A stretch of 12,036 bases of DNA. It comes from a virus. Its lineage: Duplodnaviria > Heunggongvirae > Uroviricota > Caudoviricetes. Under the pieces are notes generated by a model that saw only the letters and a list, made by a program, of their open reading frames with translations, did not search any database and was not told the DNA's origin. Position numbers and translations under genes: made by a program. The DNA is taken from IMG/VR virus record IMGVR_UViG_2734482777_000021; one strand, given 5' to 3'. This document shows positions 3,824 through 4,249 of the stretch, in pieces; within the stretch, counting starts at the first letter, position 1; the number at the start of each line of letters is the position of its first letter.

Positions 3824-4249
3824 ATGACAGCACAGATAGCGGCTTACGGGCGGCTGGTGGCTGACCCGCAGTTAAAGACCACCAGCAAGGGAACACAAAT
3901 GGCGATGGCGAGTATGGCGGTTCCCCTGCCATGCAGCCAGGCAGATGACGGAACGGCGACGATGTGGTTATCCGTCCTGGCGTTTGGCAGACAGGCCGAC
4001 GCACTGGCAAAACACCAGAAAGGCGAACTGGTGAGCGTGGCGGGTAACATGCAGGTAAGCCAGTGGACAGGCCAGAACGGCGAAACGCGGCAGGGCTGGC
4101 AGGTCATCGCAGACAGCGTAATCAGTGCGCGAACGGCGCGACCGGGCGGCAAAAAAGGCCAGCAGGGCCAGGCTACTGACGCACTGAACAGGGCAAAACA
4201 ACAGACAGGCCAGCACGATGATCCGTACGGGGACGGGATACCGTTTTAA
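3824..4249 (+). CDS. Single-stranded DNA-binding protein-like (OB fold) with C-terminal ...DDPYGDGIPF tail
   Basis: Its core (WLSVLAFGRQADALAKHQKGELVSVAGNMQVSQWTGQNGETRQGWQVIADSV) parallels the E. coli SSB core ([50 protein letters not shown]). A Gly/Gln-rich linker precedes an acidic tip ending in IPF, like DDDIPF of SSB. GGAG lies upstream of the ATG. Confidence 0.7.
   Translation: MTAQIAAYGRLVADPQLKTTSKGTQMAMASMAVPLPCSQADDGTATMWLSVLAFGRQADALAKHQKGELVSVAGNMQVSQWTGQNGETRQGWQVIADSVISARTARPGGKKGQQGQATDALNRAKQQTGQHDDPYGDGIPF

Follow-up and report, generated by a model that had tools for sequence, protein, structure and literature searches.

An SSB-family protein with an Ile-Pro-Phe tail encoded beside the putative replication origin of a capsid-forming PICI-type satellite

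Introduction

Why would a phage satellite carry an SSB (single-stranded DNA-binding protein) in a host that has an essential SSB of its own, and what might the tail of such a protein do? The question is raised by a gene in a 12,036-nt stretch of viral DNA (Caudoviricetes; IMG/VR record IMGVR_UViG_2734482777_000021), referred to below as the window. A first-pass annotation made from the letters alone had described the product of 3824-4249 as a satellite-encoded, SSB-like protein whose C-terminal tip mimics that of host SSB, and had proposed that it recruits host replisome factors to the element's origin or competes with helper-phage replication. The host tip is a known interaction element: about 17 partners use the nine-residue SSB tip (PMC7145534), and partners such as chi, DnaG, ExoI, RecQ and RecO accommodate its last residue, Phe, in a hydrophobic pocket with basic residues around it, with the penultimate Pro also being critical (ssb-113; PMC3632105).

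Results and discussion

The 3824-4249 product belongs to the bacterial SSB family

The gene, its upstream signal and the three parts of its product are as follows.

3810..3813, + strand: Shine-Dalgarno-like GGAG, 10 nt 5' of the ssb ATG, from direct reading of the sequence
3824..4249, + strand: SSB gene (ssb), an ATG open reading frame of 141 codons plus TAA
3824..4132, + strand: OB-fold ssDNA-binding core, residues 1-103 (AlphaFold2 mean pLDDT of 76-91 in 10-residue blocks)
4133..4216, + strand: short linker, residues 104-131, predicted disordered (pLDDT below 50)
4217..4246, + strand: C-terminal tip DDPYGDGIPF, residues 132-141, from the translation

Translation of the frame gives a 141-residue protein running from MTAQIAAYGRLV to QHDDPYGDGIPF before the stop. 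Every SSB homologue examined shares the N-terminus MTAQI[AS]A[YH]GR, and the start codon is therefore correct. Profile searches place the protein in the SSB family, with 59.5 bits for Pfam PF00436 (gathering cut-off 26), 61.7 bits for NCBIfam TIGR00621 (cut-off 53.95) and E=2e-39 for PHROG 44 ('single strand DNA binding protein'). Against PDB sequences, phmmer matched more than 30 solved SSBs with a top E of about 1e-10; the closest were from Thermus, Deinococcus, Thermotoga and Gram-positive bacteria, with E. coli SSB (EcSSB) at E=4e-5.

An AlphaFold2 monomer model built on an input alignment of 22 homologues gives the same picture. Its core comprises strands at residues 2-11, 16-19, 25-36, 44-54, 69-82 and 88-101 and a helix at 55-62; an OB fold is a beta-barrel whose helix lies between strands 3 and 4, and the model conforms to it. 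When the model was searched with Foldseek, all 50 of the best PDB matches listed were bacterial SSBs, with E down to 1e-9; SsbA/SsbB of S. aureus and B. subtilis were matched at target-normalized TM scores of about 0.8. Residues 104-141, covering linker and tip, have pLDDT below 50, in keeping with the disordered linker and Pro-Phe tip of the family. A helix is predicted within the linker at residues 116-127 (ATDALNRAKQQT), and as its pLDDT is below 50 we draw no conclusion from it.

The product of 3824-4249 is thus a genuine member of the bacterial SSB family, and PF00436, TIGR00621, PHROG 44 and the AlphaFold2/Foldseek comparison all agree with the earlier description of a 141-residue protein with an SSB-like OB-fold core. 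An HMM search against the SSB family, named beforehand as a check on that description, passes the PF00436 and TIGR00621 cut-offs; the profile searches lead to the SSB fold and not to an unrelated one, which had been named as the outcome that would speak against it.

Comparison with E. coli SSB

To EcSSB (P0AGE0, a reference sequence identical to PDB 1eqq_A) the satellite protein is only 26% identical over the OB core. Three of the four aromatic residues that stack on ssDNA in EcSSB are kept, with W48, F54 and W81 aligning with W54, F60 and W88, while the W40 position is Q39 of the satellite protein, in a shortened loop. The EcSSB tetramerization residue H55 corresponds to L49, a substitution that gives no verdict either way on a tetramer. 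The two proteins share the OB fold, the equivalents of W54, F60 and W88, a disordered tail, the terminal I-P-F and an aromatic residue at position -6. They differ in the linker, which in EcSSB has 56 residues and is rich in Gly, Gln and Pro, whereas that of the satellite SSB has 28 and is not, and the satellite protein is nearer in sequence to Thermus, Thermotoga and Gram-positive SSBs. On the 26% core identity and the different linker, a recent capture of the host ssb gene was rejected.

At the tip itself, Y-G-D-G-I-P-F of the satellite SSB aligns with F-D-D-D-I-P-F of EcSSB, so that Gly replaces two of the three Asp residues of the EcSSB hexapeptide and the tip is partly de-acidified; there are three Asp in the last 10 residues of the satellite protein versus four in the EcSSB nonapeptide MDFDDDIPF. 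The translation agrees with the first-pass reading of a DDPYGDGIPF end, which has its last three residues in common with EcSSB.

The tip is kept through repeated linker changes

Among the 120 closest database clusters (72-97% identity), an IPF end is present in 107/120, [ILV]PF in 110/120 and a terminal F in 114/120, and the longer motif DDP[YFW]xDx[ILV]PF in 105/120. In an alignment of homologues D137, P140 and F141 are invariant and I139 is conserved in at least 90% of sequences, and the tip is kept even though indels of 9-13 residues lie directly before it. Survival of the tip through these repeated linker indels, together with the 107 IPF endings, argues from sequence comparison that it is under selection.

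Across genera, among full-length island homologues (n=36), 31 end in Phe and 21 in Pro-Phe, and only six in [ILVM]-Pro-Phe. PP[FY]DD[DE]xPF is the usual tip motif in other genera, with APF, TPF, DPF, DDF or PEF at the end of others. Across genera the OB core has a mean identity of 72% to the window residue and no gaps. Some homologues are truncated or lack the terminal Phe (for example L008, L026, L028, L033 and L035). In islands of Klebsiella, Enterobacter hormaechei and Rosenbergiella (loci L007, L010, L020, L021, L039, L030 and L031) the SSB ends in ...YDDDF, ...HEDDF or ...NDEPEF, without Pro-Phe and with the acidic run and terminal Phe kept. The linker is rich in indels among homologues, with GQQGQATDAL[NR]RA conserved within a subset. 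The corresponding window segment, 4169-4204 (residues 116-127), has the form (GQQGQ)ATDAL[NR]RA[KQH], unlike the Gly/Gln/Pro-rich linker of EcSSB, and is kept in Escherichia, Enterobacter, Klebsiella, Leclercia, Pluralibacter and Pectobacterium homologues.

More distant relatives (36-60% identity) commonly carry an FDD[DE][IL]PF tip. Because these relatives have such a tip and the OB core is only distantly related to that of EcSSB, the comparison indicates that the satellite tip is the ancestral tail of the SSB family, inherited and not acquired by mimicry of the host protein. Of the proposal that a host-type IPF tip mimics host SSB, the retention of IPF in the close homologues therefore stands and the mimicry does not; 'host-type' itself is only approximate, given the two Asp-to-Gly changes here and the APF, TPF, DPF, DDF and PEF endings elsewhere.

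Recruitment of host partners by this tip is a reasonable inference from the established role of the SSB C-terminus (PMC3632105, PMC7145534). Binding is plausible because I-P-F is retained, its strength is uncertain because two Asp residues are lost, and the tip changes among relatives suggest that host partners may be bound more weakly or differently.

The gene lies in a cf-PICI-type satellite

In the window, a DUF4222 gene, a gene for a 708-residue DUF927 protein, intergenic repeats, ssb, a PerC-family gene, a small ORF and a bidirectional terminator follow one another. Beyond these lie a convergent 168-residue ORF and genes for an HK97-type capsid, prohead protease, portal, head closure, connector, HNH, TerS and TerL, with Pfam matches for capsid, protease, HNH and TerS. 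The features immediately 3' of ssb are listed here.

4265..4546, + strand: PerC-family transcriptional activator gene (Pfam PerC, 120.8 bits; RefSeq annotation in L001-L004)
4553..4840, + strand: small ORF, orf95 (PHROG 1957; hypothetical protein in L001 and L002)
4850..4869, no strand assigned: bidirectional intrinsic-terminator-like hairpin with a 7-bp stem, 6 GC pairs and T-runs on both strands

The PerC gene starts 15 nt past the ssb stop. The small ORF, whose real start is probably the ATG at 4592, is the last gene of the presumed rep-SSB-PerC transcription unit, and the hairpin closes this replication operon. A possible target of the PerC protein is the packaging operon; another is host genes, the targets of the PerC/Pch activators in EPEC and EHEC.

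Neither the window nor the element of E. coli CEA106S (L002) contains tail or lysis genes. Elements 96.8-97% identical to the window in complete E. coli genomes carry the same annotation and, upstream, a tyrosine integrase and HTH regulators. Since the window does not include the element's left end, size was judged on the CEA106S element, which extends from the integrase (4265) to the end of TerL (18658), about 14.4 kb, between rcnR and thiM. A capsid-forming PICI (cf-PICI) has its own packaging module (criteria of 10.1101/2025.02.11.637232), a size of about 10-18 kb and integrase, regulation and replication modules. By this published working definition, and judged on gene content, the window element is a cf-PICI-type satellite, and the protein was rightly called satellite-encoded, as packaging genes are present without tail or lysis genes.

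The window contains no tRNA and, at Rfam gathering thresholds, no structured RNA, such as the C4/isrK-type immunity RNAs mentioned for PICIs. A role as a defence-system component was considered and set aside, as PADLOC returned no match for the SSB, Rep, orf95 or the 168-residue ORF. This last ORF, at 4876-5382 on the minus strand, is convergent with the replication operon and lies beyond the terminator. It matches PHROG 5789 over its full length and has no Pfam match. The E. coli strain 10 element carries it as a hypothetical gene and the CEA106S element lacks it; a place between the replication and packaging modules would suit an accessory or defence cargo gene.

An initiator-helicase and a putative origin lie directly upstream

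Two features lie 5' of ssb.

1461..3587, + strand: replication initiator-helicase gene, rep (DUF927, 708 residues; Pfam DUF927, 160 bits)
3613..3763, no strand assigned: putative origin with six 12-nt iterons, TAACCCGCAAAA, from repeat geometry and count versus shuffles

Rep is similar to SaPI-type initiator-helicases, matching at E=1.2e-14 the PDB sequence 8tch ('Pathogenicity island protein') and also 5dgk ('Active helicase'). It also matches PHROG 1139, 'DNA primase' (E=1.7e-174), only over profile positions 284-894 of 895. No Pfam domain was found in Rep residues 1-170 or 436-708 at E<=1, and weak matches to PHROG 'DNA primase' families fall outside their N-terminal 283 positions, so that no primase domain was detected, a call that rests on negative HMM results.

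The iterons begin 26 nt past the rep stop, and the last lies 60 nt from the ssb ATG. The minus strand carries two of them (3613-3633) and the plus strand four, spaced at 21 nt (3689-3763); these opposed sets flank a 55-nt AT-rich spacer (3634-3688) with 31% GC versus 51.5% for the window. Six iterons compare with 0.06 expected, a count that none of 200 shuffles reached. SaPI origins likewise lie immediately 3' of rep and have an AT-rich region between opposed iterons (PMC9371898), and the window combines the two parts of a SaPI-type rep-ori module, a self-loading initiator-helicase and an adjoining opposed-iteron origin. A separate ssb promoter within the origin was also sought. One sigma-70-like site with 9/12 matches lies at 3674-3701, and because the number of sites (3) equals the shuffle expectation (3.0) it is not evidence of a promoter.

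An apparent island lineage combined with different replicases

DNA homologous to ssb is present in 1,804/5,426 complete E. coli genomes, at up to six places per genome; 2,344/2,346 of the places are chromosomal, and routine annotation calls the product 'single-stranded DNA-binding protein'. A 100% identical gene in E. coli CEA106S encodes WP_047627319.1, which carries that annotation.

In four E. coli contexts an SSB 55-100% identical to the window protein, each time followed by a PerC-family gene, stands behind a different replicase: DUF927, primase-like, RepA-family helicase or TOPRIM-DUF927. What follows the SSB-PerC pair also varies, with a full cf-PICI packaging set in 2/4 contexts, a capsid-decoration-TerS set in another, and no structural genes in the other. 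The ssb, perC and packaging genes of CEA106S are 100% identical to those of the window, while identity between the two Reps is only 44% and confined to a short stretch, which places a recombination junction at the start of ssb (about 3587-3824 in the window). At this place CEA106S (10471-11004 of its locus) has a 'primase-like DNA-binding domain' replicase and a small ORF overlapping the ssb start, replacing the iteron region of the window. From these comparisons rep-ori cassettes appear to be swapped as units directly upstream of ssb.

Scanning one genome per species gave 37 loci. Nearly all belong to Enterobacterales, in about 20 genera, and two records bear other labels. In most of the loci a DUF927 Rep homologue precedes the SSB by a few hundred bp and an integrase by several kb; PerC is directly 3' of the SSB in about half, and cf-PICI capsid genes are present in only a few. 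The two exceptions, a record labelled Chryseobacterium sp. (L014, CACSKA010000004.1) and a Sphingomonadales MAG (L036, CAIKKO010000462.1), carry Enterobacterales-type island SSBs 65% and 53% identical, respectively, and likely reflect contamination or mis-binning rather than true cross-phylum spread.

Other mobile elements were considered as sources. Among 50,697 deposited phage genomes no enterobacterial phage encodes a relative at E<=1e-5, and capture from a helper phage finds no support; the best relatives in that set are about 30-31% identical and come from Gram-positive or thermophile phages. Matches at E<=1e-5 occur in 47 of 72,556 plasmid records, two of the 47 typed conjugative; they are mostly non-mobilizable, and the closest resemble islands or excised satellites. 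An F-type plasmid SSB was likewise rejected on the chromosomal context and the few plasmid matches, and the gene does not lie in a leading region beside psiB/ardA-type establishment genes. A 22.9-kb circular, non-mobilizable Klebsiella pneumoniae record, 'plasmid unnamed1' (L042, NZ_CP033626.1), encodes a 70% identical SSB along with integrase, AntA/B, DUF4222, Icd-like, primase-helicase, PerC and tape-measure genes, with the HTH-AntA/B-DUF4222 block present twice; it resembles an island or satellite, excised or concatemeric, that was assembled as a plasmid. Because phage and plasmid relatives are scarce or distant, whereas island loci span Enterobacterales, the SSB lineage appears to belong to integrative satellites and islands, with no recent origin from the host, helper phages or conjugative plasmids.

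A probable role in the satellite's own replication

We consider it probable that the satellite SSB coats ssDNA as part of the satellite's own replication module, with its tail linking the coated DNA to host proteins. This reading starts from what is observed, namely a member of the SSB family with the SSB fold and a conserved tip, linked to rep and an origin across Enterobacterales. On induction, the early operon comprising DUF4222, the DUF927 Rep helicase, the origin, SSB, PerC and orf95 would be transcribed, presumably as one unit. Rep would bind the opposed iterons directly 5' of ssb and melt the AT-rich spacer, and the SSB, in whatever oligomeric state it binds, would cover the exposed strands, supplementing the SSB of the host while satellite and helper replicate in a burst. 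The acidic, Phe-terminated tail would then couple the coated DNA to likely partners such as Pol III chi, DnaG primase and PriA-type restart factors, a link to host primase that would matter because Rep is without a recognizable primase catalytic domain. Against this reading, the host already supplies SSB, so that the satellite copy may be dispensable, and the alignment gives a tip less acidic than that of the host protein and no conserved equivalents of W40 and H55.

The tail might instead serve a partner within the element, docking on the satellite's own Rep helicase or autoinhibiting the OB fold and making the SSB a dedicated helicase cofactor. Tight linkage of rep, origin and ssb across genera would fit this, as would a partly conserved, possibly helical linker segment unlike the EcSSB linker, and the APF, TPF, DPF, DDF and PEF variants suggest co-evolution with something else than conserved host partners. 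However, four unrelated or very divergent replicases precede SSBs that are 55-100% identical to the window protein, the CEA106S protein being fully identical beside a Rep that matches at 44% over a short stretch, and [FY]-D-D-[DE]-x-P-F is the generic bacterial SSB C-terminus. Because closely related SSBs follow unrelated replicases, we do not favour a Rep-specific partnership and regard the idea as unlikely. The tip may have been retuned, losing part of its acidity here and elsewhere exchanging Ile for Ala, Thr or Asp or ending in DDF; together with a conserved, predicted helical segment gained in the short linker, it might recruit only a subset of host partners, or the element's own helicase. 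We judge this improbable; if true, it would steer host primase and polymerase towards the satellite origin at the expense of the helper phage, a way of exploiting helpers at the level of replication that has yet to be described in PICIs.

Interference with helpers is common among satellites, and the tip keeps the I-P-F residues recognized by partner pockets, so a satellite SSB could in principle act as a decoy that competes with host or helper SSB on ssDNA or titrates host SSB-interacting proteins, slowing helper replication or modulating SOS and recombination. The gene, however, sits in the replication operon beside the origin and not in an accessory or interference region, PADLOC finds no match, and the published interference by cf-PICIs acts at the level of packaging and capsids. 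We accordingly give this reading very little credence, and the earlier proposal that the protein competes with helper-phage replication finds no support. That the gene is a redundant passenger, an extra copy kept by linkage or decaying without a specific role, would be in line with the essential SSB of the host and with the truncated or Phe-less homologues; the strong conservation of core (72% mean identity, no gaps) and tip, and intact copies in one third of complete E. coli genomes, make it hardly credible.

Relation to known SSBs of mobile elements

The presence of an SSB in PICIs is already known. RefSeq names this exact protein an SSB, the family is listed for PICIs, and mobile-element SSBs with conserved tails are familiar. 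Mageeney et al. 2023 (PMC10111431) sort gene families of Gram-negative PICIs into categories, with Primase, SSB and DUF5906 under Replication and colocalizing with mapped origins. The window protein agrees with that family in kind of element, Pfam family and place beside a primase/helicase gene and an origin, and differs in nothing substantive; that paper categorizes the family, with neither discussion of the tip nor a functional test. A literature search for a functional study of a PICI or satellite SSB returned only this categorization, and the cf-PICI papers and SatelliteFinder make no mention of this SSB, the mutational analysis in the cf-PICI papers being confined to the packaging module.

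Plasmid-borne SSBs are well known (PMC9849209, PMC8406263). SSBs of conjugative plasmids, such as that of the F leading region, resemble the satellite protein in being an extra mobile-element SSB in a host that already has one, but they are of another lineage, and the satellite gene lies outside a leading region, in an element packaged as dsDNA and not transferred as ssDNA.

Replication modules of SaPIs and SCCmec likewise combine a self-loading helicase (Rep or Cch; the Rep encoded in the window is related to the SaPI-type protein of PDB 8tch) with an iteron origin 3' of rep, yet SaPIs are not described as SSB carriers. SCCmec reportedly carries an unusual SSB of its own (Mir-Sanchis et al. 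2018, cited in PMC9371898); in contrast to a protein so termed, the satellite SSB is a canonical PF00436 protein with an SSB-Ct-like tip. The T7 protein gp2.5 has an acidic tail ending in Phe. Phage SSBs (PHROG 44, the SSBs of Gram-positive siphoviruses, T7 gp2.5) are thus like the satellite protein in being virus-associated and having an acidic, Phe-terminated tail for protein contacts, but no close relative of the satellite SSB occurs in the 50,697 deposited phage genomes, where the best identity is about 31%.

As a discovery the protein therefore carries little weight, being annotated in RefSeq, present in about one third of complete E. coli genomes and a member of a listed PICI replication family. 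The natural tip variants across genera (IPF, APF, TPF, DPF, DDF and PEF) may alter the choice of partner and offer a ready panel for the SSB-Ct code that host partners require.

One further observation concerns the site of the element. In E. coli strain 10 (L001, NZ_CP048330.1) a 96.8% identical cf-PICI lies inside the terminase large-subunit gene of a prophage; the two halves of terL (2397-3425 and 18930-19673) are annotated as pseudogenes, and the portal, protease and capsid genes of the prophage continue downstream. This insertion corresponds to the 'helper-embedded PICI' arrangement described in PMC10111431.
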